From an uncultured archaeon (GTDB lineage: Archaea; Asgardarchaeota; Lokiarchaeia; Sigyniarchaeales; SOKP01): a stretch of DNA of 64,000 nt. The notes beneath the pieces are model-generated. The model made no database searches. It saw only the letters and a program-made list of their open reading frames with translations, and was not told the origin of the DNA. Every line of letters starts with the position of its first letter. The first letter of the stretch is position 1. This document shows positions 35,062 through 63,523 of this stretch, in pieces. The stretch is taken from contig CAZBPC010000008.1 of the NCBI GenBank assembly GCA_964493715.1, forward strand, positions 9,714 to 73,713, given 5' to 3'. The position numbers were made by a program, and so were the translations under genes.

Positions 35062-36248
35062 TTGATGAAAGATACAGAAGAAATTGAGCTTAAAGATGTC
35101 GATTTGTTTGCTGAATACCTTGAGTTTCAAATGTTACCCCAGATGGTAGTCTCTGCCGCTCAAGCTACGTTACCAGGCATCGGAAAGGCTGAATGGAAAG
35201 ATGTGAAGTTTAAACTTGACTTGAATTTTCCGGGTAAAATTGAAACTATTGAATTTGTTCGCTCTAAAGGCAAGAAAGTTACTATTGGAGGTGAAGTTGT
35301 GCCTCCTTTCTATAATTTTCTCGGACTTGATAAACGTAATCCCAATCCTCCACTTGTTACGTATGACGTATTCGATATGGGTTCTAAAATGATGCTTCCA
35401 AAACCCATTAAGCAAGAGTATGGAGAAGTATTACAACATCCTGCTGAATGGGCTAAATTCGCAGTTGATAAATTCGGTGCTCAATGCATTACTTTTCACT
35501 CTCTTGAAATTGATCCTGCCATGGGTGATGCACCAGTAAGTCAATCCGTGAAATACTTAGAAGATATTTTACAAGCTGTAGATGTACCCGTCATTATTGG
35601 ATGTTCGGGTAATAAAAAGAAAGATAAAGAATTATTCGAAGCCACAGCTCCGATAACAGAAAGTGAAGTATTGATGTTATCTGCAGCAGATAAAGCCACC
35701 TGGGAGGATGTAATCCCCCTAGCAGTTAAATATGACCATAATTGCTTGTTATGGACGAGTTTGGACCTCAACAATCAAATTAAGATGAATAAAGATGCCC
35801 TTGAACTAGGACTCCCACGTAATAGGATTGTAATGGATCCTACCTGCGCAACAGCGTAATTTAAATCTCTTAAATTGCTGCGATTTTAGGCTACGGGATG
35901 GAGTATAGTTTTAGCATCTACCAAAGAATGCGAGTTGCTGGTCTTTTAGGTGAGGAAGATTTAGCTTACCCAATTAGTGGGGGAACAACTAATGCTTGGG
36001 GAGCTCGTGAAGCATGGATGAGTGAAAAGAAAGTTCCTGAATGGGGTTTACGACAATATAGAGGTCCAATTTGGGAGATTATTAATGCTCTTTCATTAAG
36101 CCTGGTGGGTTTAGATTTAGCCATGATGTTCCATCCAGTTTCAGCTAAATATGTGAAAGAAATCACGAGTCAATTTTTTGCCGAAATACCTAAAGTAATG
36201 GACAATTTGGGATATTACGACTGGGTTTCTGCTCGTTTGAAAAAATAA
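35062..36248 (+). CDS. cdhD: Acetyl-CoA decarbonylase/synthase delta subunit (corrinoid Fe-S protein small subunit); two exons 35062-35852 and 35885-36248; start possibly ATT at 35026
   Basis: V.IGGE..PPFY.F, P.EWAK..V.KFGA, VDVP.IIG.SG, IVMDPT..|LGYG.EYS, AW.AREAW, G..WE, MFHP; removing 32 nt joins the two ORFs into a 384-aa frame. Confidence 0.92.
35853..35884 (+). other. Predicted 32-nt archaeal bulge-helix-bulge (BHB) intron in cdhD mRNA
   Basis: Central helix CGCA(35847-50)/TGCG(35879-82), 3-nt bulges ACA and ATT, inner hairpin AATTTAA/TTAAATT; canonical cuts give GCA AC|T TTA GGC, in frame. Confidence 0.85.
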
Positions 36249-36374
36249 TTTTTTTTCCAATTTTATTATATTATTAATTTAATCTTCTATTTTTATACCA
36301 TTTATTCTACGTCATCTCTATGGTAAATTCATCCTATTAAAGCTATCATTTCTAAGATAATTTTTTCTGGATCA

Positions 36375-37346
36375 TCAGGACATAACATTGGAATCCGGTC
36401 CTGAGTGAGAAAATGATTTTAAGGTTTCAAGTAATTGTCGTCCTTGTTCTCCTTCTTTCAATCTTATTTCGACCTTACAGGGGCATTTTTTTTTCCTTGC
36501 AAATAGTTCATCCGAATTCACTTTATAGTTAATCTTTTTGCCATCTCTTGATCCCCTTAAGTTTAACAAGTCTATTATAGGAAATGGATAACCATAGGAA
36601 TCTTCTGAGCATGAGCTATAGATATTTCTTGCTTTTTTTATGCTCACATTTGGCCCAATATCTAATAAAATTCTCCCAACAGATTCATAAGGTATAATTT
36701 TTAACTTACCATGAGCGATGATTCTATGGGTGGTAACCAAAATGTATCCCGATCGTACCTTAAGAGAATAATTTTTAGGAATTTCTTGCATAATAGTTGC
36801 ATCAAAATAATATATAATCTTCTCTCCGTTATTGAAACAATACTTTTCGAGGATATATGTATCCATCATCTTGATTCCTTCATTACCAAAAATCTTTATC
36901 AAATTATTTCGTAATTCGGAATAAAGGGCTATTTTAAAAAACTTGGGATTCAATTGAAAAACTTCTCCAACTATATCAAAAAATTCATTATCAGAAAGAG
37001 AAGAATTGATTTTTAGATTGTATAATTGTTTGAGGATAACTTTTTTTGATGGTTTTGCTCGGCTTAGCTCATTTTTAATCATATCTATTATCTGATTTTC
37101 ATCCATTTTGCTAAGTGTATCAGTCCTATACTTCGGGAAACTAGGACTCTTTCGATATCTATTGAATAAGCACAAACCAATTACACCAATAAAAACTGAA
37201 GAAGGAATCATGACTCTTATTATAGGACTTCTAATGAAATCATAAGGATCCATAGATATTTTCGTGAAACCATAAACAATAATCGCAATTGCTATAAAGA
37301 ATAATATGGCCCCAATTTTAGCCTGTATTTTCAAACTATAATTCAC
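36375..37346 (-). CDS. Hypothetical membrane protein (2 N-terminal TMs, possible C-terminal PH-like domain)
   Basis: Hydrophobic N-terminus; GEKII....G.ILVT.HRII pattern. Confidence 0.65.
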   Translation of the reverse strand: MNYSLKIQAKIGAILFFIAIAIIVYGFTKISMDPYDFIRSPIIRVMIPSSVFIGVIGLCLFNRYRKSPSFPKYRTDTLSKMDENQIIDMIKNELSRAKPSKKVILKQLYNLKINSSLSDNEFFDIVGEVFQLNPKFFKIALYSELRNNLIKIFGNEGIKMMDTYILEKYCFNNGEKIIYYFDATIMQEIPKNYSLKVRSGYILVTTHRIIAHGKLKIIPYESVGRILLDIGPNVSIKKARNIYSSCSEDSYGYPFPIIDLLNLRGSRDGKKINYKVNSDELFARKKKCPCKVEIRLKEGEQGRQLLETLKSFSHSGPDSNVMS

Positions 37347-37469
37347 TTAATGATTTTTTAAGAAAAAAGAGTATTTAAGGATTTCACTCCGTTTTACCAC
37401 TAAAAAAATCTTTTTACCGGGTAAATAAGAAATTTTAGTTGTAACTTTATGATTTTTTATCGAATTATG

Positions 37470-37514
37470 AATTTGGGTTATTACGACTGGGTTTCCGCTC
37501 GTTTGAAGAAATAA
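37470..37514 (+). repeat. Direct repeat of the last 45 bp of cdhD (copy of 36204-36248)
   Basis: 42/45 identical; the three differences are all synonymous (GGA/GGT, TCT/TCC, AAA/AAG). Confidence 0.93.
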
Positions 37515-37652
37515 GAATTTATTTATTTTTTTTTTATCATTAGAATTCCAAGTTCTGAATTGTAGAATTTCAAATTTCGTTTATCTTCAGATAAATTTTT
37601 ATCTTAACTTTACTTATTTCGTAATTAACATCAAACACTTTAGTGAAAATCA

Positions 37653-38117
37653 ATGGTAGAATTATCTCTAAAAAGCCCAACTTTTAAACATATGGGTGAA
37701 ATCCCGAGTAAATATACTTGTGAAGGAGAAAATATAAATCCTCCATTAGAAATATCTGGTGTGCCACAAAATGTAAAAAGTTTGGTTTTGATAATGGAAG
37801 ATATTGATCCTCCAATTGGAGGAACAATAACTCATTGGGTTATTTGCCACCTAGATCCGAAAACTAATAAGATACTCGAAGGGGATTCATTAGAGAATGC
37901 AATTGTTGGAAAAAGAATGTTAGGGAAACATATGTATATGGGTCCTTGTCCTCCAAAAGGTCAGCACAGGTATGTCTTCAAATTGTTTTGTTTAGACGAA
38001 AAATTACCCTTAGATCCGAATAGTAATAAAAAGAAGGTATTGCAAGAAATTGAAGGTCATATTATTGAACAAACAAAACTAATAGGTGTTTATCAAAAAA
38101 AGAAAAAAACAAAATAA
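37653..38117 (+). CDS. YbhB/YbcL (PEBP / Raf kinase inhibitor-like) protein
   Basis: IPSKYTC.G.NINPPL, D.D.P....HW, Y.GPCPP..HRY.F.L. Confidence 0.93.
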   Translation: MVELSLKSPTFKHMGEIPSKYTCEGENINPPLEISGVPQNVKSLVLIMEDIDPPIGGTITHWVICHLDPKTNKILEGDSLENAIVGKRMLGKHMYMGPCPPKGQHRYVFKLFCLDEKLPLDPNSNKKKVLQEIEGHIIEQTKLIGVYQKKKKTK

Positions 38118-38214
38118 TAATCTCAAATATTCTCACATGGATGCAATCACAAGTTTTAAATATTCTATTTTATAGAGAAGATTGGTTAGATTTGTTTTGA
38201 GGGGGTTAAATAAT

Positions 38215-38322
38215 ATGAGAGCAATAAATCTTTATACTTATATTCTTACAATAATAGGATTTGCCGCTTTGTTTACTTTAGGCTATTTAGTCCTATTCTT
38301 TGCTAGTTTACTTTTTCATTAA
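38215..38322 (+). CDS. Putative 35-aa single-TM small protein
   Basis: MRAINLYTYILTIIGFAALFTLGYLVLFFASLLFH preceded by GAGGGGG; below the ORF-track cutoff. Confidence 0.45.
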   Translation: MRAINLYTYILTIIGFAALFTLGYLVLFFASLLFH

Positions 38323-38392
38323 AAATTGTGTTATTTAATGATCGCTCCTGCTCTTTAATCACTATTTAGACACTAAAATGTGAAAGGAAATT

Positions 38393-39019
38393 TCACGAGT
38401 TAATGTATTTCATTAATCTTTCCTTACCAAAAAATCGAACTTCTAAGAGGATTTTAAGAAAGAGATCCTGAGCTAAATCGTATTCAATAAATTTCTTTTC
38501 ATAATATCGATATTCTTTGGAGTGATTTAAATATTTTATATGTAAAATTTCATGATATAACAAATATTTGATTAAAAATTTTGGAGTATTCTTAAAACTA
38601 CTAGAAATTAGTATCTCATTTCGTAATTCCTGCTTTTTATTGGTTCTAAAATACTTCCCACCGATATGATACGTGATTCGAGAATTCCATTTAACTCTAA
38701 CGGTATCCAATAATGACTTTTGCTCATTAGAAAATGTATCGAATATATAAGAATAATCTTTCTTGAGTTCTTTGATGAGTAAACGGAGATCTTCATTTGT
38801 ATCATAGGATGTTCGGATAAAGTAGGGGAATGGAGTATTAATTTCTTCATTTTTAAATAAGATGCTGTATGAAACTCTGTACCTTTTATTATTAACCAGT
38901 ACCAAAGCTGTCTTTGGATTTTTTTTTAAAACAATGGCTTTGGTTAATTTTCCATTGGAATGGAAAAATACTACATCATTTACTTGTAAATTTTTTCTTT
39001 CAATCATGAAAATTCTCAA
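38393..39019 (-). CDS. YgjP/SprT-like HEXXH metallopeptidase domain protein with N-terminal SH3/KOW-like segment
   Basis: P.F..KY.LYHE.LH....HS..Y. Confidence 0.7.
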   Translation of the reverse strand: MRIFMIERKNLQVNDVVFFHSNGKLTKAIVLKKNPKTALVLVNNKRYRVSYSILFKNEEINTPFPYFIRTSYDTNEDLRLLIKELKKDYSYIFDTFSNEQKSLLDTVRVKWNSRITYHIGGKYFRTNKKQELRNEILISSSFKNTPKFLIKYLLYHEILHIKYLNHSKEYRYYEKKFIEYDLAQDLFLKILLEVRFFGKERLMKYINS

Positions 39020-39108
39020 TAATTCATATTTTTACATACTTTTAATCTACACTCTTACTCATTTTAAAATTAGAAAAAGCTTTTAAATTCTTTGAGTCAA
39101 AAAGTTTC

Positions 39109-39903
39109 TTATGGAAAGGACCTGAACAGGAGATCTTGAATTTTATTGCTAAGTTCTTTTGCCAAATCATAAACCATCTCATCGGGAGCATTTTCCAAGT
39201 ATTCAGTCAGTTCATTTTGGATTACTGGTTGAATTTCCTTCATGACACTTTCAATAACTCCATGCTTTCTTAAATAATCACTTTTATAGCATTGAATATA
39301 ACTATTATTGAATTTTTTTAACCACTTCTTTCCTTTTAACTCAAGGCTCCTGAAAAGCTCTCTACTACATGTAGCATTGAAATTCTGAAACTCATAATCA
39401 TGTGTAGTTAAATGTTCTTTTATATAAGAAATAACTTGAGTTTTTTCATTTGAATTTAAATTAGTATGAGAATTAAGCAAAACAATTACCATGTATTTTT
39501 CAAATAAGAAGTATATCTGTACTTTAATATTTGAGCCATAAACTTCGAAATGTGATAAATTTTGGATGTTTATTTGACCAGCAATAGTTTTAATTGAACT
39601 AAAATACATTGAAATTAATTCTAAAAGATTCTCATCATCTTTAGAAAGATAAGATTTGATTGGACCATAATTTGAACCCTCTTCAGAATTGTATTCAAAA
39701 ACCATTAATGCATAACCATCAAAATTTGAGACAATTAGTCCAATTATAGGAGGTGTATCATTAAAATTACAACTACGATATGCTATTTCAATCAATGTTT
39801 TATCTATGATGCTATTGGTTTCTTGATAATTTTCCTTCAATTTTACATTAGATATTGGTTTACTCATTTGAAAAACCTGACTCACTAAAAATCCTTTAAA
39901 CAT
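39109..39903 (-). CDS. Hypothetical protein, possible roadblock/longin-like fold
   Basis: GLIVS..DG..LM..E, LISMY.SS...A..INI pattern. Confidence 0.55.
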   Translation of the reverse strand: MFKGFLVSQVFQMSKPISNVKLKENYQETNSIIDKTLIEIAYRSCNFNDTPPIIGLIVSNFDGYALMVFEYNSEEGSNYGPIKSYLSKDDENLLELISMYFSSIKTIAGQINIQNLSHFEVYGSNIKVQIYFLFEKYMVIVLLNSHTNLNSNEKTQVISYIKEHLTTHDYEFQNFNATCSRELFRSLELKGKKWLKKFNNSYIQCYKSDYLRKHGVIESVMKEIQPVIQNELTEYLENAPDEMVYDLAKELSNKIQDLLFRSFP

Positions 39904-40079
39904 TGTGATTTACATTTAATTCCATTAATAAGGAAGGACGGTATTTGTTTTGTGAGTTTAGTATTGTGTAGGTGATATGGATATAATTTGATAAAAAGAA
40001 TTTAAAAAGAAATCATAATTTTTGAATTAAGAGGCTAGAAAACTATCTTCTAAAAAAAATTAAATAAAAAAGTAGAAAT

Positions 40080-41498
40080 TTATTTTACAATCATTCCTTC
40101 CTTATCAAAGTTCAGAAAATAACTAATCTTTTCTTTAATTGGATAAAGACCTTCCTTGAACAGAGTATAAAGAAACAATCCTATAAAGACAATAGAACCA
40201 AGACCTGGTGCAAAATTAGTGACTACATCGACCGCTGTGGATGAAGGATCGACCGAAAAGAGAGTATATATTAGCGAACCACCTGCAATAAGAATGGATA
40301 TGAAGGAAATAATCATGGCAGTCTTCTTACTTACATCTAAATGGAATGGACCTACATCAACATGAAAAGTTTTAGGTTGAACAATAATCGAAAGAATCGA
40401 ATGATTTATTGTTTTCTCTTCAAATTCAACGTAGACGTGAAGATGTCTTCTTTCGCTTTCTTTCTTTTCCTTTCTCGTCCGTTTTTCCTTCTTATTTAAT
40501 GGTAACACCGAGAAAATCATGACAGGGGGATTTATAGCATCTTTCTTGACTTCTACTCTTCCAAATAATGGATGGACTTCAAATCCCTCTCCTTCTACCT
40601 TTATGTTTAGGACAGGTGGTTCTTTTTTAGTTGTTTTGATAGTAAAAGAGGTTTCAAATATAGTTTTACCTTCTTCATCCATTATTTTTAATTCTTTATG
40701 CGATAAGTAAATGTAAAATAAATAACTTGTCTTTTCCATCATTACGGAGTAATACTGAAGTCCCATATTAATTTCATATACTGAAGGTTTAGCTTCTTCG
40801 CTTTTCACATCTTTCTCGAATAATTCTGGTTCTGATATGCTTGAAAGAGTGGCCTCAGCAGCACGTTTTGGTGATGGAGGGAGTGTTGCGGGTGCTGCTT
40901 TTGGAGGGGCTCCTCCAGGAGCTGGTGGAGCCATGCTTGGTGCGGGAGGTGGCATGAAGTCCTTAGATTTTGCTCTTTCCATTTCACCCTCTGCATCTCG
41001 AATATCAAAATCGTCTACTTCTTCATAACTTATTTCTTTTTCATATAACTCTTCTTCTTCATATTTCATTGGTTCTTCGTCAAATACTTCTTTCTTCGCT
41101 TTTCTTTTAGCACTTTTTCCAGGAGCACTAGATTTTTTCTTTTCTCTTGCAATCTCAGAAGATAACTCGTCTCTTTTTCCACCAAGATCTATTTGCTTTT
41201 TTTCATCCGGCTTTTTAGCTTCTCTTTTGGATATTAAAGCTAATTTATTTATTTTAGTCTTTTCGGCTATTGGTGTGAGAGTAACAAATTCTACAAAAAA
41301 TAGATTCTCTCTTTTCAACGAAGTGTGACCAAAAGAGTCATAAATATCGTTGAGTATTTTTGAAAGGTTAGTATTTTTTTTATAATTACCAATGAATACA
41401 AAATCCATTATATAAACAGATAGAACTTCAGTCTTCTTATTGTAAAACAATTTATTGGTTGGAATTTTTAATTCTTGAATGGTTTGTAATGATTCCAT
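40080..41498 (-). CDS. Hypothetical membrane protein with acidic and proline-rich disordered region
   Basis: E/K-rich tract, PPPAPSMAPPAPGGAPP, two C-terminal TMs. Confidence 0.75.
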   Translation of the reverse strand: MESLQTIQELKIPTNKLFYNKKTEVLSVYIMDFVFIGNYKKNTNLSKILNDIYDSFGHTSLKRENLFFVEFVTLTPIAEKTKINKLALISKREAKKPDEKKQIDLGGKRDELSSEIAREKKKSSAPGKSAKRKAKKEVFDEEPMKYEEEELYEKEISYEEVDDFDIRDAEGEMERAKSKDFMPPPAPSMAPPAPGGAPPKAAPATLPPSPKRAAEATLSSISEPELFEKDVKSEEAKPSVYEINMGLQYYSVMMEKTSYLFYIYLSHKELKIMDEEGKTIFETSFTIKTTKKEPPVLNIKVEGEGFEVHPLFGRVEVKKDAINPPVMIFSVLPLNKKEKRTRKEKKESERRHLHVYVEFEEKTINHSILSIIVQPKTFHVDVGPFHLDVSKKTAMIISFISILIAGGSLIYTLFSVDPSSTAVDVVTNFAPGLGSIVFIGLFLYTLFKEGLYPIKEKISYFLNFDKEGMIVK

Positions 41499-41623
41499 GG
41501 GATTTTCCTAATTGTGATTCTTAATATTGATAATAGAATTAAAAATTATTATTTTTTTTATAACTTAAAGTTTTAGAGGACTCTCAATAAAATTACTATA
41601 AAAATAAAAAAGGATCAGGATAT

Positions 41624-42664
41624 CTATACAATTAAATCTCTGAAATAAGCTTTAATTTCAAAGAGATGCCCACTCAGATCTTTTAATTTCTTTATCTTGA
41701 CATCTGGACCAATGATTCTTTCTATCACTTCATTGACGATTTGAATATCTTTATATGATTTAAAATCCAAGTACTCTTGAGTCTCATACTTACTCATCCA
41801 TGGTTTTAATTTGGGAATTTCTTGGATTGGCTGCAAATCCCAATTTAATGTTCGTTTATAATTATCAATTAATGGTTTTAAATTCTGGTGATCCCATCGA
41901 TGTAGAACCCATGGAGCATAATCATTGAGTTTATCAAAGTCCAATTCCAGATCCTCACGCCATTCAAATTGATGATCCCAATTTGCTGTTGCTAGATAAT
42001 TGTCATTGTTAGATTTTTCAATTGAAAAAAATTTCCATGTGTTTCTGTTAATTTCTTCACTTCTAAAAGGAATACCTTCACCGTATTGAAAGAAATAACC
42101 CAAAGAGATGAACTTTTTAGGTTCAATACTTAATACTTTTAAATAAACTTCCACTTGAGTGATATCCAACTTATTTTTAATTAACTCATCTTGATATAAT
42201 TTATATACTATGTTCTTTGCTTTATTTGGCAAGCACTTACCACTAAAAACGGGATAATATGAAAAACAGAAATGAGTTGTAGAATCATCTGATTGATATT
42301 TATATATTTCGAACCAACATTCAATTAATTTAATGTTTACGTTGGAATGTATGAAATTATATAATAAAATCCCTGAGATGATTCCAGATACCAATAATAT
42401 AGGATAGAAAATAAAAGAATTAAAATATATTGGTGATAACATGATGGAGATGGCAACGTATATAAATGTGAAGCCAACGATGAATATGAGAGCTATTAAT
42501 GATTTAAACGCTTCATGTTCTTTATCCTTTTTAGAATGCATTATAATTGGGGCATTCTCAACAACGACACGATTTTCGTATTGATTGATAAAATCTTGAA
42601 ATTCTACCTTTTTCCATTCAGAATTAATCATGATATGTAAAGGGGTTGTTTGGTTTACAATCAA
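41624..42664 (-). CDS. Hypothetical membrane protein (2 TMs)
   Basis: 346-aa ORF with a hydrophobic hairpin. Confidence 0.7.
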   Translation of the reverse strand: MIVNQTTPLHIMINSEWKKVEFQDFINQYENRVVVENAPIIMHSKKDKEHEAFKSLIALIFIVGFTFIYVAISIMLSPIYFNSFIFYPILLVSGIISGILLYNFIHSNVNIKLIECWFEIYKYQSDDSTTHFCFSYYPVFSGKCLPNKAKNIVYKLYQDELIKNKLDITQVEVYLKVLSIEPKKFISLGYFFQYGEGIPFRSEEINRNTWKFFSIEKSNNDNYLATANWDHQFEWREDLELDFDKLNDYAPWVLHRWDHQNLKPLIDNYKRTLNWDLQPIQEIPKLKPWMSKYETQEYLDFKSYKDIQIVNEVIERIIGPDVKIKKLKDLSGHLFEIKAYFRDLIV

Positions 42665-42801
42665 AAAAATTATATGGTTGAATTATAATAAAACTTGTCT
42701 ATAAATTTATTTGAATTCACAATTTTCCAAAACAAATAATTAAATCATTTCTCCATGCTATTTTTAATTTTGATCCATCATTTCACTTTATGATATAAAC
42801 A

Positions 42802-45129: not shown

Positions 45130-45140
45130 TTAAATCGTCG

Positions 45141-46979: not shown

Positions 46980-47134
46980 GTTTCCATCAATTATTCATAA
47001 TTCTTTTTAATTGGAAGTAAAAAATCATTTTTTCTATAATATTCTTACCCTTTGAATATATTAGTGAAATTTTTTTTCAAATTTTATGATTCATTAAAAC
47101 AATTTTTATAACCAGTTCGTCTCTTTTTATTATT

Positions 47135-47635
47135 ATGACTGCAAAATTCGATTTAAAATGGGATGATCTTGTGTCACCTACCATGAATCCAGATGACTAT
47201 TTAGAGCAATTTAAAGATACAATTGAATCAAATTATAACACTTATGAACCAAAATCCGAAGTGTTAGAAAAAATCAAGAACTTGCTTTCCAAAAATAAAG
47301 CGAAGTTAAAAATTGTTGCTTTGGGCGCCGATTGGTGTCCAGATTGCAACAGGAACGTACCAAGGATGATTAAAATTGTTAAAATAATCAATAGTAAGGA
47401 TATTGAATTTCGGATTTTATATGGAATTATGGTTAATGCCCTCCATAAACCAGGAGAAACCATTTGGCATGAAAAACGTTCACCTCCCGAAGCTGTTGAT
47501 CCGAGATTTGAGTTAAAAAAAATTCCAACCTTCTATTTTTTCAATAAACATAAAGAATTTATTGGTCTTATCAAAGAAAATCCAATAGACACTATTGAAG
47601 AGGATATGCTCGAAATTTTAGAAACTAGTCAATAA
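47135..47635 (+). CDS. Thioredoxin-family protein
   Basis: WCPDC active site, cis-Pro IPTF. Confidence 0.85.
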   Translation: MTAKFDLKWDDLVSPTMNPDDYLEQFKDTIESNYNTYEPKSEVLEKIKNLLSKNKAKLKIVALGADWCPDCNRNVPRMIKIVKIINSKDIEFRILYGIMVNALHKPGETIWHEKRSPPEAVDPRFELKKIPTFYFFNKHKEFIGLIKENPIDTIEEDMLEILETSQ

Positions 47636-51698: not shown

Positions 51699-51925
51699 TT
51701 CTTGTTAATCTAAATCAAATTTTTTTTTCTTTTTTTAAAAAAACCTTCCTATTTTTTAAAAATTCATAAATCAAGTGATTAAAAGAATTATATAAAATTT
51801 CATATTTCTTGCATGCAATTGATCCAAATTCATTAATATACTAACAAAATTAAAAAGTAAATGTACCTTTTTCCAAGTATACCAATTAGTATAAAAACAC
51901 ACTAAATTAATTTAGGAATAAGAAA

Positions 51926-53227: not shown

Positions 53228-53568
53228 GGTTAATTCAATATCCTTTATTTTTTTATTTTTTTTTAAATTTCGGTCTAAATCTTGATTAATTTTCAAAAAG
53301 AGGATGAACAAATCAAATGGTTCTAATAAAGAACACTATGACCCTAAATGGTTGAAATCCCACATCTTAAAATTCTATTTCATAATATTACTTAAAATTG
53401 TATCCTTTGTCATATTTTTTATTACTTAATCCTTTTCTCAGTTTAGGAGAATTAGATTATTAATATTAAGGAACAATAAAATTTGAGTAAATTATATGAT
53501 ATACTCAATATTATAATCAGAACATATGAATTTAAAATAAAAAAAAGAAAGGGTTAAGTGCATTGAGC

Positions 53569-54882: not shown

Positions 54883-55015
54883 TTTAAGTTTTTTTAATTT
54901 AATTAAATAAGATATGAGAAATAGTATTAATAGTATTAAAAAGAGTATGAATTATTTATTTAATTTTATCATTATTAATGAGTTTAAAAAAACCTTTTTT
55001 TGATTCAGAACCGTT

Positions 55016-55762
55016 TCAAGTTATTAATTTTCTCAATCTCGCCGATAACTTTTTTGAAATTATCAACGCAGTCTCAAATGGGCTATTTTTTTTAAATTGA
55101 ATGACGGAGATGAAATTGTCAATGCCAACAAGTGAGAGAATGCCATAATCTTCGAGAGAAATCAATTCATGTATTTTAGAATTACCTATTATGAATCTAC
55201 TCTCTAAAAGCCTTATAATTTCAGATAGCACGTTCGAACTTAAGTAAGATATGATCACACGGCCTGTTTGAGTTAATAAGGCTGATGATATAACAAAAGA
55301 AGAAAATGTATGTAATTCTTCAAATACCTCTATAAGATCTTTTTGTATTTCTTCTGAAACCAATTTTTTACTTCTTTCCATTATTTCATCAATATCATGT
55401 TTGAATTCTTGATAAATAGAGATATCTCCATTAAAATTTTCAGTTAATTGAGTTAAATCAAATTTTTCTAAAAATTGGCTTTTAATTTCTCTTAGTTGGT
55501 TTCTCAACTCTACTAGATTATCAGTTCTATCACTAAATAATGCAAACATTAATTCACTGGAATCTGCTTTTTCAATTTCAAAAATAAACCGGAAAGGTCC
55601 CACTTCAATTTCTGAAAGTTCTTTAGTTTTCAAAGTTGCCTTTACAAAGGAGAATATGGCACTTAGAAAGCTACTTGTTAGCTTAATGTTAAAAATATCT
55701 TCATAAGTCTTGTAGAAAATCAATTCTCCTGTAGATTTCATTATAAAGATATTTTTGATCAT
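55016..55762 (-). CDS. Longin-like plus roadblock/LC7-like domain protein (Asgard eukaryotic-signature type)
   Basis: N-terminal MI..IFI...GE.IF...Y...L.SSFLSAI.SF longin pattern; second domain SSALL...G..I.S. Confidence 0.65.
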   Translation of the reverse strand: MIKNIFIMKSTGELIFYKTYEDIFNIKLTSSFLSAIFSFVKATLKTKELSEIEVGPFRFIFEIEKADSSELMFALFSDRTDNLVELRNQLREIKSQFLEKFDLTQLTENFNGDISIYQEFKHDIDEIMERSKKLVSEEIQKDLIEVFEELHTFSSFVISSALLTQTGRVIISYLSSNVLSEIIRLLESRFIIGNSKIHELISLEDYGILSLVGIDNFISVIQFKKNSPFETALIISKKLSARLRKLIT

Positions 55763-55928
55763 GATTATAATTTAAAGAAAATGCTTGGTCTATACAATTC
55801 TTATAAAAGTACAATTATAAAAATCCTCTTTTAAGTAAATACCTCTTATTTAATGAATTTTTTTAAAACTTCGAAGAAAAAATCCTTAAAAAAATGTTTA
55901 AATGGAGGATACTATTAATAGATTTGGC

Positions 55929-56663
55929 TTAATACCCATCAAACTTAGCCCATTCGTCATCATCTTCAAAATCTTCTTCCTCATCATGAGATGTTGGGGC
56001 ATTTTCATCAACTTCGCGTTCAATGGAATCATCTTCATAGTACTCTTCATCTTCATCAAAGGAAATAGCTTTTTCCAAATCAGTTATGATATCTTCGGCA
56101 GTAACTTGAATCTCTGGAATAGGTTCCTCTTTAGGTGTCTTCTTTTCAACTAATTTTAAATAATCACCATGTATTTTGATGGTTATTGGAGTTTCTTCTT
56201 GTAACAACCTTACCACCACTTCCTCGCTACTGGAAGTATCATGAGGCATTCTCATTACTAAAGCCCTAGATCCTTCAAAAACACCACTGATTATTTCTAC
56301 GGTATCTCCTTCCTCTAAATATTCAGTGACACTTCTTGGAAGAAGTACATGTTTTAATTCTGTCAAATTTATGTTTTGAACAATTCTGCCTTTAATGTGA
56401 GGAATTCCTTGTACGCCAATTTGCACATCACGTTTTTGTGGTGCTTCAAAAAAGATGTAACCGGGTAATAATGGGCTTATTAATATTGCTCGAATATCTG
56501 GAATTACTTCTAAAATTTTGAATCTGTAAAAAATCTGTTTCAGAATGTTGCTCTCCTGGTTGATTGTCGTCCTGACAGCGAATAATGTCGTTAACTCTTC
56601 CTTTTCATCTATTTCAATTGGTAGTAAATAATCATCATTAACTTCATCTTCTTGCTTTACCAT
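55929..56663 (-). CDS. spt5: Transcription elongation factor Spt5 (NGN + KOW) with acidic tails
   Basis: FAVRTT..QE, L.GYIF.EA, EGD.VEI.SG.F.G..A.V KOW motif. Confidence 0.88.
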   Translation of the reverse strand: MVKQEDEVNDDYLLPIEIDEKEELTTLFAVRTTINQESNILKQIFYRFKILEVIPDIRAILISPLLPGYIFFEAPQKRDVQIGVQGIPHIKGRIVQNINLTELKHVLLPRSVTEYLEEGDTVEIISGVFEGSRALVMRMPHDTSSSEEVVVRLLQEETPITIKIHGDYLKLVEKKTPKEEPIPEIQVTAEDIITDLEKAISFDEDEEYYEDDSIEREVDENAPTSHDEEEDFEDDDEWAKFDGY

Positions 56664-56854
56664 TCTTCCTCACTTTTCTTATTTGAATTTACAATTTTTT
56701 AAAATTGTTGATTTAATTTATTAGAAAAAAAGCTTAAGTTTCTTAGTTTTTTCTAAATTATAAAATTTTGCTTTTATATACAATCTTGATTGTATTAAAT
56801 AATTAAGTAGTTTTGGCAATGTCATCTTTCTGGCTAACTGAAGTTTCAAACTTA

Positions 56855-57196
56855 TTAGTATTCATATTTATCTTCGGGTTTATACTCTCCTTTGATAAAT
56901 ATAACTTTTAATTGATCCTCTGTATTATTTTTAATATTGTGTGTTTCATTTGGTTCTATTAAAAAGACACTCCCTTGAGGAGCGTCATGTTTTTTCCCAT
57001 CTACTAGCATTAAACCACTACCTTCAATAAAATAAAAAGTTTCATCAACTTCATGATGACCATGTTCTACATCTGCCATTGTCTCACCAGGTTTTAATAG
57101 AATAATGCCCCAATCGATACTAGGACCTCTCATTAGATATTTAACTCCTGAATCTCCCTTCCTGTACTCTAAATCGTTTTCATTTATTTGCTTAAT
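56855..57196 (-). CDS. Cupin domain protein (probable ATT start at 57196; ORF track starts at 57214)
   Basis: HGH.EV.ETFYF..G.G, G.V..IEP.E.H cupin motifs. Confidence 0.88.
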   Translation of the reverse strand: MKQINENDLEYRKGDSGVKYLMRGPSIDWGIILLKPGETMADVEHGHHEVDETFYFIEGSGLMLVDGKKHDAPQGSVFLIEPNETHNIKNNTEDQLKVIFIKGEYKPEDKYEY

Positions 57197-57351
57197 TTCT
57201 AACCACCATCTCAAAATGCATTATAATAAAGAAATTATCAATATTCTATTTTAAATGTTATTATAATTATAATTCGTACCTTTTTGACCTCATAATAAAG
57301 GTTATAATAGGTAACAAATGTTTAGATCCTATATAGAGCCATATAATAAAA

Positions 57352-58551
57352 GTGATAGTAAATATGATACCCTCTTTCAATTTTACCCGAATACCCCAAA
57401 TTATTTTTGGACCGGGTAAATTAGCAAATCTTTATTCTCTTATCTCGCAATATGGAAAATCTGTTCTTATTGTTGTAGGTGCAAGCTCTCTCAAAAAATC
57501 TGGAAAGTTGGATGAAATTCAGAAGACTCTCAAAGATAAGATGATAAATTTTCAATTCATAGATGTAAATGGGGAACCATCACCAAGTATGGTTGATGAG
57601 GTTGCTCAAAAATATCGTAATAAAAATATAGATTTAGTGATAGGAATTGGTGGTGGAAGTGTCACTGATGCTGGTAAAGCGATTTCAGCAATGATCCCTA
57701 AGTTAGACTCAATTATAAATTACCTTGAGGGTGTAGGAACAAAGATCCATGATGGACAGAAAATACCATATATTGCTATTCCAACAACATCAGGTACTGG
57801 AAGTGAGGCAACAAAAAACGCTGTGATTAGCGAAATTGGACCAGCAGGTTTTAAAAAATCACTTCGACACGACAATTTAATTCCCGATGTAGCTATTGTA
57901 GATCCAGAGCTAATGATATCATGCCCTCCATCTGTTAGTGCTGCATGTGGGATGGATGCATTCACTCAATTACTTGAATCTTATGTATCTTCTAAAGCAA
58001 ATCCAATAACAGATGCTTTAGCATACAGTGGTATGACATACATAAAAGATGCATTAATTCCTGCTTGCTCCAATCAATCTTCAAACATCAAAATTAGAAG
58101 TTCTATGGCTTATGGATCCCTCATTTCAGGGATGACTCTCGCAAATGCCGGTCTAGGAATTATACACGGATTAGCATCACCAATTGGAGCTAATTTTATC
58201 ATTCCTCATGGTGTTGTGTGTGGAACGATCCTTGCTGAGGCTACTAAAATGAATATAAAGATGCTACAAAAAATGGGATCAGAGGGCAAGATTAGCTTGA
58301 AAAAATACGCTGATATTGGAGCTCTACTTTCCGATGAGCCATTGAACACAAAAACAAATCTTTCTGTAAATCTCTCAACTCTCATTAAAACTCTTGAAAA
58401 TTGGACTTACATTTTGCATTTAGAGAGATTAAGTAAATACGGGATTTCTTATAATGACATCAACAAGATTGTTGAAAAAGCAGAATTAAAGAATAATCCC
58501 GTGAAGCTTGATAAAAAAGATATGATAGAAATTTTAGAAAATCGTATATAA
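57352..58551 (+). CDS. Iron-containing alcohol dehydrogenase
   Basis: GIGGGS..DAGK, PTTSGTGSE.T, GMDA..Q..E, H.....HG. Confidence 0.93.
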   Translation: MIVNMIPSFNFTRIPQIIFGPGKLANLYSLISQYGKSVLIVVGASSLKKSGKLDEIQKTLKDKMINFQFIDVNGEPSPSMVDEVAQKYRNKNIDLVIGIGGGSVTDAGKAISAMIPKLDSIINYLEGVGTKIHDGQKIPYIAIPTTSGTGSEATKNAVISEIGPAGFKKSLRHDNLIPDVAIVDPELMISCPPSVSAACGMDAFTQLLESYVSSKANPITDALAYSGMTYIKDALIPACSNQSSNIKIRSSMAYGSLISGMTLANAGLGIIHGLASPIGANFIIPHGVVCGTILAEATKMNIKMLQKMGSEGKISLKKYADIGALLSDEPLNTKTNLSVNLSTLIKTLENWTYILHLERLSKYGISYNDINKIVEKAELKNNPVKLDKKDMIEILENRI

Positions 58552-58581
58552 TTAAAAATAATCAAGAATTATTTATTAAAA

Positions 58582-59013
58582 ATGCGCTGTAATATAGTAG
58601 TTATTGATGCAAATTTTCTTTTTCTTCCAATTCAATTTAAGATTGATTTTCTTAGTGAAATATCCTTTAAGCTAGTCGGAAAAAACTACTTCCTCATTTA
58701 TAAGCAAATTTTCGATGAGTTAGAGTCAAAGAAAAATAGATTACATGAAATCTCAAAATTTGGAAGAGAATTTAACTTTGTATCAGTGTATCTTGAATCT
58801 AATAAAAATAATTACAATCTCATATATATTAATAAAATTAAAGAAAGATCTGAAACAACAGATCAATTTTTACTTAATGAATGCTTGCGATTAAAAAAAA
58901 CCCATCATAATATATATTTAGCAACGAATGATTCGCAATTACGTAAGGAAGCAACTAAAACAAATATTAGAAATATTTGTTTACGACAAAAAAAATATCT
59001 AATAATTTGTTAA
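58582..59013 (+). CDS. PIN-domain protein (Fcf1/Utp24/VapC9-like)
   Basis: VVIDANFL, .EL, D..L, LATND..LR, LRQ. Confidence 0.8.
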   Translation: MRCNIVVIDANFLFLPIQFKIDFLSEISFKLVGKNYFLIYKQIFDELESKKNRLHEISKFGREFNFVSVYLESNKNNYNLIYINKIKERSETTDQFLLNECLRLKKTHHNIYLATNDSQLRKEATKTNIRNICLRQKKYLIIC

Positions 59014-59136
59014 TATCAAAACAAAGGCTTTTTTTAATAGAATTATTACAATATAACAATATTCTTGTGAATTTTAGAAGAACTGCGAGTGTAATAAACT
59101 CTAATTCGAAAAAGATAAATCATTGTTTGACAAAAA

Positions 59137-59652
59137 ATGTCGAAAATAATAAAAATTATTATCACTGGAAATGGAGGCGTTGGAAAAACGACCTTACTTC
59201 ATCGATACATAGAAGGGCACTTCCTGGTAGACACATACATGACGATAGGAGTCGAATTTTTTATAAAAGAGTTGGATGTCGATGAATCAAAAATATTAAT
59301 GCAGATTTGGGATTTTGGCGGGCAAGAGCGCTTCCGTTTTCTATTAAAAAGTTATGCAAAAGGAACGAAGGGGGCTCTCTTTTTATTTGATTTGACCAGA
59401 CCTCTTTCAATAGAAAGTATTGATGAGTGGATTGATATTTGTAGATCGGAAGATCCCACCACCCCTATTTTACTGGTTGGCTCGAAAGCAGATTTAGAAG
59501 AGACAACTTTTATAGACGAGGAGTATATTCGAAACATTCAATATAAGTATGGTTTATTTGATTTCATAAAAATATCAAGCAAAAGTGGAAGAAATGTTGA
59601 TAAAGCATTTAGATTAATTGCTGAAAAAGTTGTCAAATCAAATAATTTCTAA
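59137..59652 (+). CDS. Rab-like small GTPase
   Basis: GNGGVGKT, TIGVEF, WDFGGQERF, SKAD, SSK. Confidence 0.95.
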   Translation: MSKIIKIIITGNGGVGKTTLLHRYIEGHFLVDTYMTIGVEFFIKELDVDESKILMQIWDFGGQERFRFLLKSYAKGTKGALFLFDLTRPLSIESIDEWIDICRSEDPTTPILLVGSKADLEETTFIDEEYIRNIQYKYGLFDFIKISSKSGRNVDKAFRLIAEKVVKSNNF

Positions 59653-59697
59653 AAGTGCAGTCAAATTCTTTCTTATATTCTTGACAAAATTTAAGAA

Positions 59698-60219
59698 TTA
59701 ATAATTTTGTCGTTCCAAAATCTTTCTTGTTAGTAGTTCAAAAGCATTCTGAACATTCTCACCAGTTTTACTTGAAATCCGCAAATATTCAAATAAATTA
59801 AAATGATTCTTAAATTCTTCGGCATATTCATCATTAATCATAATTTCTTCGGCTAAATCATTTTTAGTGCCTAAAAAAATCACTGGTAAGTTTGGATCAC
59901 CCTTGCGAACAATATTTATCCATTGTTCCAAATTATCTAAAGTCATCGGGCGCGTCAAATCAAACATTAAAAGCGCTCCCTTTGCTCCCAATACATAGCT
60001 TTCTAATAGAAATCTAAATCGCTGCTGACCCCCAAAATCCCATAATTGAAGCGTGCATTGTTGCTCATCAACAATTGTCTCTTTTAAGTAAAATTCTACA
60101 CCAATAGTCATCTTGGTTGAAGCGGAGAACTTTCCTTCAACAAGACGGTGAAGTAAGGTCGTTTTTCCAACACCTCCTTCACCAGCTGTCAGAATTTTCA
60201 ATATAAACTTTTTAGGAAT
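59698..60219 (-). CDS. Rab-like small GTPase (probable ATT start at 60219; ORF track starts at 60201)
   Basis: GEGGVGKT, TIGVEF, WDFGGQ.RF, TKND, SSK.G.NV..AF. Confidence 0.95.
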   Translation of the reverse strand: MPKKFILKILTAGEGGVGKTTLLHRLVEGKFSASTKMTIGVEFYLKETIVDEQQCTLQLWDFGGQQRFRFLLESYVLGAKGALLMFDLTRPMTLDNLEQWINIVRKGDPNLPVIFLGTKNDLAEEIMINDEYAEEFKNHFNLFEYLRISSKTGENVQNAFELLTRKILERQNY

Positions 60220-60593
60220 CGTTGTTCACCCTGTTATAAGCATTTTGTTTATATTAATGATTATTTTGAGAATCATAATTTGCAAAACTAATTTATCATT
60301 TGATTCAAGGATATAATAGAAGTATTAATTGAGTTTTCAATAAATTAAATTTCTAATATTATTTGATCTTTATATTTTATTGTATTTTTCAGATATTTTC
60401 ATTGTTTAATACGATTTAACTATTGAAAATTAAATCATCATGCAATTACGATAAAACTCTATATTATTTACTCTTTCCATTTAATTAAATTTAAATGAGA
60501 GTCTTTTTTAATGCTACGTTGATGTAAATAATATATATTATGAGGATTCTTATAATATATAATGACGAATAAGTGTTTAAATAAGTGATTTTG

Positions 60594-60872
60594 ATGAAAA
60601 AAAAAATACCCTCTGATGGAGAATTAAAAAATCTAGGTATTGAATCATGGGGGATATGGGAAAAGGAAAAAAGCATTTTCGATTGGTCTTATAGTGAAAC
60701 TGAAACATGTTATATTCTAGATGGTGAGGTGGAGGTAACTGATTCTGAAACTGGAGAAAAAATAGACTTTAAAAAAGGAGATCTTGTTCAGTTTCCAAAA
60801 GGGTTGAATTGTGTTTGGAATGTTAAGAAACCAATAAGGAAATACTACAATTTTGGCGATTTAGATATATAA
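60594..60872 (+). CDS. Cupin_3 (DUF861) protein
   Basis: W.IW.KE.S.F.W.Y...E.CYIL.GEV, GDLV.FP.G..C.W. Confidence 0.9.
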   Translation: MKKKIPSDGELKNLGIESWGIWEKEKSIFDWSYSETETCYILDGEVEVTDSETGEKIDFKKGDLVQFPKGLNCVWNVKKPIRKYYNFGDLDI

Positions 60873-60952
60873 TCGATTATTTTTTCTTCTTTTTTTTTGG
60901 GCAAAGCTTCAAATATAAACAGACCAAAATTATTTATGCCTAAGAATAAATT

Positions 60953-62662
60953 TTGATTTTCATGAGTAGTTATCCCATAAAATACAATGATCTATTTGAG
61001 AAAGCTCCGTTTTCTATAGTTTTTTTGGATCTTAACGGAAACATCATTGATGTTAATATTTCTACAGAAAAGATATATGGTTATAATAGAGAAGAACTAA
61101 TTGGATTAAATTACCTAAAATTATCCGCTTATCCAACAGATTTATTACCTCTCTTAAGGGAGAGATTAAAAAATGCAGGAGTGGGAATTCTTTTAAAACC
61201 TGAGGAATTTCAGATATATAGAAAGGATGGGAGCATCGCTTGGGTGATTTCTTTTATATCCCTAATAAAAGTTGCTGATTCCTCTATAATTCAAGCAATT
61301 TTATTAGATATAACTGAACTAAAACAAATTGAAGCTCAGTTAAAAGAGAAAATTAAAATAGAGCAAATAATTTCGAAAATATCCTCTCGATTTGTAAGTG
61401 ATACTGAAATAGATTCAGCAATCTTTTCCTCTCTAAGAGATATGGGGTCATTATATAATGCTACCCGAGCTTACATTCTTCTTTATAATAACGTATCAAG
61501 TTTGGATTTTTTTGCTCAAGTACAATGCGAGGACTCCGAAGATATTCCTAAAGTTGACCTGAAATACATAGATCCTCTAAAATTTCCATGGATCAGAATG
61601 CAATTTAGAAAGCTTGGTTATATTTTTATAGAAGATATACTTAATCTCCCCAAAATTGCTAATCAAACAAAAAATGAACTAGGAAAATTTAAAATCAAAT
61701 CTCTTCTAGCTTTCCCTTTAAATATCAAAAATGGAAATAGGGGTTTTATTGTCTTTGATAATATCAAAGAGAATTTAAAGTGCGATCCCAATAATTTAAG
61801 TTCGATACAAACTTGTGCCGAAATAATCGCGAATGCTCTGGATCGAAAATGGTCTAATGAAACGTTAAGAGGTAGTCATCAACTTTTAGGGGGTATCCTA
61901 TCTTCACTCACAGAAATGATATGCTTAATCGATAAAGAATTGAATATTATTTGGGTTAATAATGCTACAAAGAATATTATGGGTAGAGATTTATCTGGGA
62001 AAAAATGTTATGAAGTTTTTATGCATCAGAATAAACCCTGTACAAATTGCATAGGTCTAAAAACCTTTTTGGATGGTTCAATACATGAAAGTGAGCAAAA
62101 ATTGATCGATATTGATAAGAACATATATTACTGGTGGACCACATCGAATTCAGCTGCCTTAGATATAGAGGGTGAACCAGAATTAGTGATATTAATTTTT
62201 AGAGATATCACAAAAAGAAAGGAGGTAGAACTTAGTCTTGAGACCTCAGAAAAAAAATTAAAATCTCTTAACGAAATCCTTGCACAACAAGTAGAGGAAA
62301 GAACGAAGGAATTAAAAACATCAGAAGAAAGCTACAAAAAAATTTTAAATGATTTAGATGTTGGATTTTATAAAGGAGAATTTAAAGGAAAAATGCTCAT
62401 GCATAACCAAACGGTCAATAAAATCTTAGGTATTGAGTTTACAAAATCTTTAGTAGGTACTTCATCTACTGATTTTTTTTCAGATCCCAATACTCGTAAT
62501 GAATACTATAAAAAATTACTAACCGATGGAAGAATTCAAAATTTTATCGCAGAACTTATCATACCTTCAGGTGAAAAAATTTGGGTACGAGTAAACTCTC
62601 ATTTAATTAGAGATGAAGATGGCAATCCAAAAGAAGTCGAAGGCACTATTATAAAAATGTAA
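60953..62662 (+). CDS. PAS-GAF-PAS-PAS sensory protein with no output domain
   Basis: Three PAS/PAC repeats (DITE.K, DITKRK), one GAF (SLLA.PL....GF...D); ends right after the last PAC. Confidence 0.85.
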   Translation: MIFMSSYPIKYNDLFEKAPFSIVFLDLNGNIIDVNISTEKIYGYNREELIGLNYLKLSAYPTDLLPLLRERLKNAGVGILLKPEEFQIYRKDGSIAWVISFISLIKVADSSIIQAILLDITELKQIEAQLKEKIKIEQIISKISSRFVSDTEIDSAIFSSLRDMGSLYNATRAYILLYNNVSSLDFFAQVQCEDSEDIPKVDLKYIDPLKFPWIRMQFRKLGYIFIEDILNLPKIANQTKNELGKFKIKSLLAFPLNIKNGNRGFIVFDNIKENLKCDPNNLSSIQTCAEIIANALDRKWSNETLRGSHQLLGGILSSLTEMICLIDKELNIIWVNNATKNIMGRDLSGKKCYEVFMHQNKPCTNCIGLKTFLDGSIHESEQKLIDIDKNIYYWWTTSNSAALDIEGEPELVILIFRDITKRKEVELSLETSEKKLKSLNEILAQQVEERTKELKTSEESYKKILNDLDVGFYKGEFKGKMLMHNQTVNKILGIEFTKSLVGTSSTDFFSDPNTRNEYYKKLLTDGRIQNFIAELIIPSGEKIWVRVNSHLIRDEDGNPKEVEGTIIKM

Positions 62663-62674
62663 AAAATGGGTTTT

Positions 62675-63220
62675 TTATGTATTAAATCTTTGTTTTTCTC
62701 TGTATTCTTTTACTGAAATTTCTCTTTGGCTTAATCTGTTGTTTTTAATTAGGGTTTCTTCAATTGCTTTCACTTGTGCCCTTGTTGTTACTTTAAAATT
62801 TGTTAACTTTTCTAGAATTTCTTTTTCTCCCAAACCGACTTTATATAATTTAGTAAATGCTTCAATGGTCTTTTCATTGAAAAAAATGTATTGTTTATTG
62901 AGAAAAATTATTAACCATCCTTTCTTTTTTTGTTTTATGCTCATTAAAAACATTTGTTCTTGAATTTTTTTAAGGGGCTTCTTTAAAAGTTTAGATAGGG
63001 TTTTATCATCTACTGATTTATACTCTTTAATAAATCTCTTAAACTTTATTGAAAAAATTAAAGAAGGCACATCAGTGATTAAATATATAATAATTACTAT
63101 TACTGTTATCCATATAGCAGTTATCAGGCTATAAAATGATATAATGAAAATTATGAAAGCTACGATTAATATCCAATATTTTCTTAAAGATAATAGGATT
63201 ATTTTAAACTTTTCTAGCAT
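62675..63220 (-). CDS. Hypothetical basic membrane protein
   Basis: Two N-terminal TMs, Lys-rich remainder. Confidence 0.7.
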   Translation of the reverse strand: MLEKFKIILLSLRKYWILIVAFIIFIISFYSLITAIWITVIVIIIYLITDVPSLIFSIKFKRFIKEYKSVDDKTLSKLLKKPLKKIQEQMFLMSIKQKKKGWLIIFLNKQYIFFNEKTIEAFTKLYKVGLGEKEILEKLTNFKVTTRAQVKAIEETLIKNNRLSQREISVKEYREKQRFNT

Positions 63221-63331
63221 GATTCATCCGGTAAAATAAAGAATGTTTCTGTATGATGAATGATTATTATTGCTACCTTAAAAAAATTATTACTTAAAAT
63301 TGGAAGTTCAATAATAGAATAATATTAGCAC

Positions 63332-63523
63332 TTTAACCACAAAAACTTCCAGATCGTAGCGAGACCGGGTATTTTCCTTGGAGACCATGACCGTAAGCGA
63401 ACTTACAGCTTGAAAGTTCCCACAAATTGAAATTGAAGTACTATTTTCAACGCCAACAAGTTTAACTTCCGGGTTCGGATGGTTCCGGCGCTATGCGAAG
63501 CGCGTGGAAATTTTGTGGTTAAA
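63332..63523 (-). repeat. Processing stem (inverted repeat plus BHB-like motif) enclosing the permuted 5S
   Basis: TTTAACCACAAAATTTCCA (63523-63505) pairs with TGGAAGTTTTTGTGGTTAAA (63351-63332); TAGCG/CGCTA outer helix, CCGG/CCGG central helix, bulges AAC and TCT. Confidence 0.85.
63363..63482 (-). rRNA. rrf: Circularly permuted 5S rRNA (predicted 120-nt circular mature form)
   Basis: Minus strand reads CCATCCGAACCCGGAAGTTAAACTTG...AGTAC...GGGAAC...GCTGTAAG-TTCG-CTTACGGTCATGG...GGAAAATACCCGGTC: the 5S 3' half comes first and the 5' half second. Confidence 0.88.

Follow-up and report, generated by a model that had tools for sequence, protein, structure and literature searches.

The window analysed here is a stretch of 64,000 nucleotides (nt) from an uncultured Asgard archaeon of the order Sigyniarchaeales (contig CAZBPC010000008.1), and it very likely holds two substrates of the splicing endonuclease that are not transfer RNAs (tRNAs). 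One is a short intron in the gene cdhD, and the other is a gene for 5S ribosomal RNA (rRNA) that is circularly permuted. An earlier note on this DNA (the original prediction) had proposed that the two share a single cut rule for the bulge-helix-bulge (BHB) motif, and both loci do fit this rule.

According to the explanation put forward here, a two-subunit endonuclease would cut the cdhD messenger RNA precursor (pre-mRNA) after the second nt of each bulge, and the ligase RtcB would join the exons, restoring the codons for DPTCAT-LGYG. The 5S transcript would consist of a leader, the 3' two-thirds of the molecule, a tetraloop, the 5' third and a trailer. Its leader and trailer would pair into a BHB, from which the endonuclease would free a 120-nt RNA, and ligation of the ends would rebuild loop C. 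This product would be a covalent circle because helix I is closed by a loop of 4 nt, and the circle would most likely stay closed in the ribosome.

The Proposed Intron in cdhD

The Pfam family CdhD is matched consecutively by two open reading frames (ORFs), the first (35062-35859) covering positions 7-180 of the profile and the second (35898-36248) positions 186-227. Their reading frames differ. The neighbouring genes are unrelated, cdhD standing alone in the window. The boundary of exon 1 was set using the intronless alleles discussed below together with the BHB cut rule, and the parts of the gene are as follows.

35062..35852, plus strand: cdhD exon 1, 3' end ...GAU CCU ACC UGC GCA AC, Pfam CdhD 7-180
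35843..35890, plus strand: cdhD BHB motif, with outer helix 35843-46/35887-90, central helix 35847-50/35879-82 and bulges 35851-53 and 35883-86
35853..35884, plus strand: predicted BHB intron of 32 nt, with an in-frame stop TAA (35857-59) and the inner hairpin inside it
35885..36248, plus strand: cdhD exon 2, starting U UUA GGC UAC GGG and running through to the stop, Pfam CdhD 186-227

The central helix is formed by CGCA (35847-35850) and UGCG (35879-35882), with all four positions paired. The bulges are ACA on the 5' strand (35851-53) and AUU(U) on the 3' strand (35883-85/86), and an inner helix of 3 base pairs (bp) adjoins the bulge. The minimum free energy (MFE) fold contains the same central and outer helices, and leaves the GC pairs adjoining bulge 1 unpaired. 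In pre-tRNAs the endonuclease cuts after the second nt 3' of each strand of the central helix. Applied to cdhD this rule removes 35853-35884 (32 nt) and gives the junction GCA AC|U UUA GGC, which encodes DPTCAT-LGYG. The frame is restored, and the predicted splice product is exactly the sequence of the intronless alleles.

Both anchors flanking the site were found in 21 cdhD loci of the genus, and 17 of these are intronless and carry the exact junction predicted. Two loci, one of them the window copy, have an insert of 32 nt, while two others have one of 36 nt at the same site. A wider set comprised 80 species loci, 72 of them with both anchors; 65 are intronless, and five have an insert at the window site (one of 32 nt and four of 36 nt). 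For every cdhD insert the cut rule regenerates the intronless sequence and the central helix is paired at 4/4 positions. The 32- and 36-nt inserts have the central helix and the hairpin loop in common, while the stem differs by compensating changes. In these comparisons the insert behaves like a structured RNA element and not like a lesion, and the presence of a BHB intron in the predicted cdhD pre-mRNA is confirmed as an observation at the level of the DNA.

Two of the 72 species loci (L352 and L367) carry a separate 33-nt BHB insert 8 nt upstream, which has its own central helix with 4/4 positions paired. It would seem that inserts have entered this short part of cdhD on at least two independent occasions. 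Some congener contigs end at the cdhD intron site or a few bases from it (G023:C83, G019:C10 and C36, and G029:C64). One possible cause is that mixed populations with and without the intron break the assembly.

The Permuted 5S rRNA Gene

The Rfam family for 5S rRNA (RF00001) matches the window at 63400-63511 on the minus strand with 25.5 bits, and this is the sole match in the whole genome, which is estimated to be 100% complete. In the first half of the gene, as read on the minus strand, the leader is followed by the 3' part of loop C, the 3' strands of helix III and helix II, and helices V/IV with loop E. The second half consists of the 3' strand of helix I, UUCG, the 5' strand of helix I, loop A, the 5' strand of helix II, loop B, the 5' strand of helix III and the trailer. 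The features of the locus are listed here in the order of transcription, except that helix I stands below the body in which it lies.

63505..63524, minus strand: leader arm of the long stem between leader and trailer, UUUUAACCACAAAAUUUCCA, conserved among loci of the genus
63482..63493, minus strand: leader half of the 5S BHB, with outer helix 63493-89 UAGCG, central helix 63488-85 CCGG and bulge 63484-82 AA|C
63363..63482, minus strand: permuted 5S body, 120 nt between the predicted cuts, based on anatomy, nhmmer rotation and covariation
63390..63409, minus strand: helix I closed by a tetraloop, GCUGUAAG-UUCG-CUUACGGU
63357..63368, minus strand: trailer half of the 5S BHB, with central helix 63368-65 CCGG, bulge 63364-62 UC|U and outer helix 63361-57 CGCUA
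63331..63351, minus strand: trailer arm of the long leader-trailer stem, UGGAAGUUUUUGUGGUUAAAG
63280..63286, minus strand: run of seven U 3' of the trailer, read from the sequence, putative terminator

The leader UAGCG[CCGG]AA|C and the trailer [CCGG]UC|U-CGCUA form a BHB with an outer helix of 5 bp, the first base of which, 63493, is also the end coordinate given in the original prediction. Cuts at this BHB would free 63482-63363 (120 nt), and when the ends are joined the sequence reads CCCGGUC|CCAUCCGAAC, which is a normal loop C. The leader-trailer duplex has a calculated energy of -40.3 kcal/mol, to which the long outer stem contributes. Similar T-runs follow the trailer in relatives, and we infer that the seven-U run is a terminator.

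The identity of the gene was examined with a standard 5S profile built from nine 5S genes of the sister family. When the permuted copies were rotated in silico, nhmmer aligned all 14 genus loci end to end on the profile (positions 3/4-113/115) with 31-50 bits and E-values from 1e-10 to 2e-16. With the same copies in genomic order the profile match splits, and the 3' part comes before the 5' part.

Covariation was analysed for 28 pairs in 27 loci representing 20 distinct sequences. The structure in permuted order has 96.1% of its cells paired, compared with 35-44% when the partners are slid. Ten of the 28 pairs are changed on both sides, and the covariation score is higher than in all 500 shuffles. 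Helices I, II, IV and V are all backed by covariation. Helix I (helix 4 in the covariation test) is 100% paired in the 20 distinct sequences and has two pairs changed on both sides.

A strict BHB surrounds the 5S sequence in 27 of 30 genus loci, and the predicted product is 120-121 nt, or 150-151 nt where an extra insert is present. Of the three other loci, one runs off the end of its contig, while in the other two a single pair of the outer helix is mismatched. For the commoner arrangement, pairing is 100% both in the central helix and in three pairs of the outer helix, with one compensatory pair in each. Two break points are found within the genus. One, shared by the window copy and two further loci, lies in loop C; the other, just after helix III, is that of all remaining loci. 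Both give the same circular sequence. These results confirm, for the DNA, that the 5S gene is circularly permuted.

Nine congeners have, within the permuted 5S gene, an additional BHB insert of 30-31 nt, which lies in loop C in seven of them (L004, L005, L015, L017, L018, L025 and L027) and in helix IV in two (L030 and L031). The central helix of these extra inserts is paired at 4/4 positions exactly at the cuts defined by homology, in 9/9 cases.

Distribution of the Permuted 5S Gene

The distribution was studied by means of a covariance model of the permuted order. Within the archaeon's own family, full-length matches were obtained in 111 of 124 other genomes, representing 12 of 13 genera. 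No 5S gene above the Rfam cut-off is present in the five family genomes with the best contiguity, of which two are single contigs, and their weak matches fall on the permuted locus. The only 5S gene above this cut-off in the genus is found at G015:C263:6954-7076, on a separate contig; it looks bacterial and is probably a contamination of the bin.

The model matches none of 13 genomes of the sister family, where the 5S genes are standard (53-68 bits with Rfam). A match was found in the one genome from a second family of the order (G037:C63:7489-7589), and by eye helix I is loop-closed in this locus as well. In a family elsewhere in the class, one of three genomes gave a weak match (G057:C56:2030-2131). 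By these matches the permuted 5S gene characterises the family as a whole, and the permutation may predate the family or may have arisen more than once.

The Splicing Enzymes

The genome encodes two paralogs of the splicing endonuclease, of 207 and 205 amino acids. The best match of the 207-residue paralog is the catalytic chain of the heterotetrameric enzyme of Aeropyrum pernix (3p1z_B, 1e-36), and in our reading of the alignment the Tyr, His and Lys residues are kept. The 205-residue paralog has Asp where the His should be. The stretch ISKPRMEYFSKP of the 207-residue paralog aligns to VEKPRGADFEGP of 3p1z_B, which we take to be the crenarchaea-specific L1 loop. By sequence the endonuclease would be of the two-subunit (alpha-beta)2 type with an L1 loop, that is of the broad-specificity kind. 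The original prediction had argued that a broad-specificity enzyme would be needed, and the pair of paralogs, with the catalytic one keeping Tyr/His/Lys and an extra loop aligned to that of A. pernix, agrees with this. The ligase RtcB is encoded in the genome as well. The (alpha-beta)2 architecture with L1 has already been reported for Asgard EndA and was linked to relaxed choice of substrate (PMC5829648).

BHB Inserts in Other Protein Genes

Beyond cdhD, five protein genes with BHB inserts were found in the genome. They encode RtcB, NadE, a VWA/CoxE-like protein, a Ras-family GTPase and a V4R-domain protein.

G000:C2:12136-12164, minus strand: rtcB insert of 29 nt, present in 2/29 loci (this genome and its closest relative) and absent from 27
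G000:C39:8748-8777: nadE insert of 30 nt, in this genome only; the halves of the gene match Pfam NAD_synthase 3-143 and 144-242
G000:C28:34412-34441: VWA/CoxE-like insert of 30 nt, shared by this genome and three congeners, the hairpin differing by compensating changes
G000:C6:80447-80476: Ras-family GTPase insert of 30 nt, inside the DxxGQ motif; 7/7 fetched relatives are intronless
G000:C13:42940-42978, minus strand: V4R-domain gene insert of 39 nt, present also in two close relatives; 5/5 others are intronless

The rtcB insert interrupts GGVGY|DINCG and has the central helix UUGG/CCAA and an inner helix of 9 bp. If this intron is spliced, the ligase would be needed for its own mRNA, and the intron could act as a feedback loop. 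The VWA locus is 30 nt shorter in about 17 congeners, by our own arithmetic from the match rows. The inserts in nadE and in the VWA, GTPase and V4R genes are each missing from most congeners. In all six insert genes, cdhD included, the cut rule regenerates the intronless sequence. A fully paired helix lies exactly 2 nt 5' of both homology-defined cuts in 5/6 mRNA inserts, the central helix of the V4R insert being paired at only 3/4 positions. By our own estimate the chance of full pairing for a given pair of 4-mers is about 0.02-0.07, taking into account base composition and 1-3 equivalent cut positions. The rtcB, GTPase and V4R inserts were found without use of the motif and therefore guard against circularity.

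The introns in cdhD (window 35847-35884) and in the VWA gene (G000:C28:34412-34441) have the same central-helix strand, CGCA, and a hairpin of the AAUUUAA type. As judged by these features the two introns may be related copies, which would be a hint of intron mobility.

Genome scans were carried out for a BHB motif together with an excision that fuses two open frames, using as controls cuts shifted by +-1 nt and a mirror-image topology. In neither of two such scans were frame-restoring candidates in excess with the true cut rule as compared with the controls (e.g., 3639 against 3561 and 3690, or 32 against 34 and 36). For finding new cases these scans for motif plus ORF proved nearly useless. 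The 40 candidates with the best structure were run through Pfam, and in nadE alone do the two halves match adjoining parts of a single family. Comparison with relatives then confirmed nadE and VWA only. About ten of the 40 are plainly adjacent genes that belong to separate families (L32e/L19e, GATase/CPSase, ZnuA/ABC and others), and the rest had no informative Pfam match.

A census based on homology set this genome against 1.54 Mb of sequence from a single congener, using 879 ORF queries with a match of at least 45% identity. It was filtered to interior gaps with good flanks; the unfiltered census was swamped by shadow ORFs and upstream extensions. Five inserts were found in the 879 queries, three of which were known beforehand and had guided the choice of contigs. 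In the reverse direction 945 queries revealed no insert in the congener. Two frameshifted genes, at G000:C90:7450-8186 and G000:C2:88812-90052, are not introns, as they show 1-nt frameshifts and lack an insert; a sequencing error, a pseudogene or a programmed shift could account for each. A candidate in an epimerase gene on C43 was dropped, its relatives being equally long there, and an apparent split at G000:C71:~4500-4610 proved to be a scaffold N run with duplicated flanks within the gene.

Roughly ten protein genes per genome may thus be expected to carry BHB introns, well under 1% of the genes, and these candidate mRNA introns are apparently few, patchy among species and recent.

Alternative Explanations

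The gene anatomy, the exact match to intronless and unpermuted relatives, the covariation and the presence of genes for endonuclease and ligase are established. From these we infer cleavage, ligation, circularity and the final form of the RNA, and that all four are reached in this way counts against the explanation given above. The same can be said of several of the observations themselves. All the genomes are metagenome assemblies, and several cdhD contigs stop at the intron site. The outer helix of the cdhD BHB (4 bp) needs a 3' bulge of 4 nt, and with a bulge of 3 nt only one outer pair is left; its 3' side is slightly relaxed compared with the canonical motif. The stability of the MFE fold of the cdhD region is not above that of shuffled sequence (z -0.34), and the argument therefore rests on position and comparison and not on energy. 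The 5S gene in genomic order is below the Rfam gathering score (25.5 against 38 bits), and 13 of the 124 family genomes have no match to the permuted model. The BHB around the 5S sequence in the window is without an inner helix, as the original prediction had remarked; its description of the site as relaxed did not hold, as the central helix, both 3-nt bulges and the outer helix are canonical.

The cdhD insert might instead be a lesion, that is, the gene might be a pseudogene or specify two separate polypeptides, or ribosomes might bypass the insert or shift frame in reading it. The stop codon and the frame shift brought by the insert fit this, as do the unremarkable stability of the fold and the ATG at 35898, which could begin a second polypeptide. 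However, the insert splits the conserved motif DPTCAT|LGYG, and a start at this ATG would lose LGYG. Several species retain homologous versions of 32 or 36 nt, whose hairpins differ by compensating changes and whose central helix is the same. The conserved Thr codon is regained in both versions by the BHB cuts only; in our own reading a hop between Ala codons would give Ile there. As the same anatomy is moreover found in five other genes, a lesion is a most improbable explanation of cdhD. For the 5S gene, the excised RNA might never be ligated and function as a linear permuted RNA held together by base pairing, with its ends in loop C or near helix III, or a circle might form and later be reopened. 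There are precedents for both, since organelles have linear permuted 5S RNAs (PMC4267664) and the 23S rRNA of Pyrococcus is circularised and then opened elsewhere (PMC7758197). Yet the two break points in close relatives leave one circular sequence, which is easier to understand if selection sees the joined product, and joining exactly rebuilds either the conserved loop C or the junction CCGGAA|GUUAAAC. As to reopening, the loop on helix I is 4 nt long and often UUCG or UACG with covarying closing pairs, so it offers no spacer or signal. We regard an unligated or reopened 5S RNA as unlikely, although it is the least improbable of the alternatives.

A further alternative concerns the extent of splicing. 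The original prediction had suggested that BHB splicing is used genome-wide and that many genes annotated as frameshifted or split in this lineage carry BHB introns, which would imply dozens to hundreds of such protein genes per genome. In favour of this, six protein genes with BHB inserts occur in one genome, rtcB was met by chance in the third family examined, and relaxed motifs slip past scans, as rtcB, GTPase and V4R did in the first one. The suggestion has gained support to the extent that five more protein genes were found. Against the larger number speak the two scans with no excess at the true cut rule, the census with 5/879 queries (three known beforehand) and 0/945 in reverse, the 1-nt shifts in both frameshifted genes, and the Pfam triage of 40 candidates that left only nadE and VWA. 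The lack of an excess over controls had itself been named in advance as an outcome that would tell against the idea, and for the motif scan this was the outcome. That BHB introns are common in protein genes is thus very unlikely, and what the census points to is a small set.

Relation to Known Systems

The kinds of arrangement described here are already known, namely permuted tRNA genes, the intron of cbf5 and circular 23S rRNA, and a permuted archaeal 5S gene is unreported in the literature searched. This search, which had subscription journals and supplementary files outside its scope, did not reveal an archaeal permuted or circular 5S rRNA, an intron in 5S rRNA or, for Asgard archaea, a BHB intron in a protein gene. 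The SRP (signal recognition particle) RNA gene of Thermoproteus, another RNA in another lineage, is permuted, and its order is restored by circularisation at a BHB. To our knowledge protein-coding BHB introns are known essentially from cbf5 of Crenarchaeota, and neither BHB nor splicing endonuclease is known for the permuted 5S genes of organelles.

The cbf5 pre-mRNA intron of Crenarchaeota is likewise short and bounded by a BHB, lies in a protein gene and was both gained and lost between closely related lineages; a two-subunit endonuclease presumably cuts it (PMC2738675). The present introns differ in that they occur in Asgard archaea, in other genes and several to a genome, and are predicted from the DNA. 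In this genome cbf5 itself is unsplit.

Permuted tRNA genes likewise have their 3' part before their 5' part; the leader pairs with the trailer in a BHB, and a circle results once the RNA has been cut and ligated (PMC3978253; PMC3218864). Here the RNA is 5S rRNA, the trait is fixed in a whole family, and the ends are joined by a bare tetraloop in place of a spacer that is later removed; the 5S circle may therefore be the final product. The circularly permuted 23S rRNA of Pyrococcus furiosus (PMC7758197) and circular archaeal 23S rRNA (PMC12918454) are likewise made by way of a circle that depends on a BHB, and a ribosome can contain a circular rRNA. The permutation there takes place at the RNA level, from a colinear gene, while here the gene itself is permuted. 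The second of these papers (PMC12918454, 2026) describes circularisation as a feature of 16S and 23S "but not 5S rRNAs". The organelle 5S genes (PMC4267664) likewise have a permuted order and are missed by standard models. In contrast to these, the gene described here has a canonical BHB and encodes an archaeal nuclear-type 5S rRNA.

If the explanation is true, a permutation of the 5S gene that is fixed in a family (at least 12 genera) would overturn the view of 5S as the sole archaeal rRNA that does not pass through a BHB circle. It would also explain why standard tools find no 5S gene in these genomes, and it predicts a circular 5S rRNA in the ribosome. The six candidate mRNA introns in one Asgard genome, varying among congeners, would be a natural system for studying gain and loss of protein-spliced introns near the eukaryotes, and BHB introns would then be a live and mobile class of mRNA introns in prokaryotic relatives of eukaryotes. 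Gene annotation is affected as well, since gene calling splits the insert genes into false pairs. Taken to its full extent, the picture is that of a whole Asgard family with covalently circular 5S rRNA in its ribosomes, encoded by scrambled genes and matured by the tRNA-splicing endonuclease and RtcB, and with the same machinery splicing a small, fast-turning-over set of mRNA introns that includes one in rtcB. To this combined picture we would give a little less than an even chance.

Other Features of the Window and the Genome

The window has a single tRNA gene, and as the original prediction stated it has no intron.

27272..27348, minus strand: tRNA-Pro(UGG), intronless, the only tRNA in the window

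In contrast to the protein genes, the tRNA genes of the genome are heavily interrupted. ARAGORN detected only 27 tRNAs in the whole genome, 12 of them with introns. With the completeness estimated at 100%, non-canonical or multiple introns presumably conceal many others. The low count and the many introns fit a preprint on Asgard tRNA introns (10.64898/2026.10.13.758758). The Avashort thermometer of Rfam is weakly matched at 63921-63986 on the plus strand of the window (24.7 bits, with the cut-off at 88), almost certainly by chance in AT-rich sequence.

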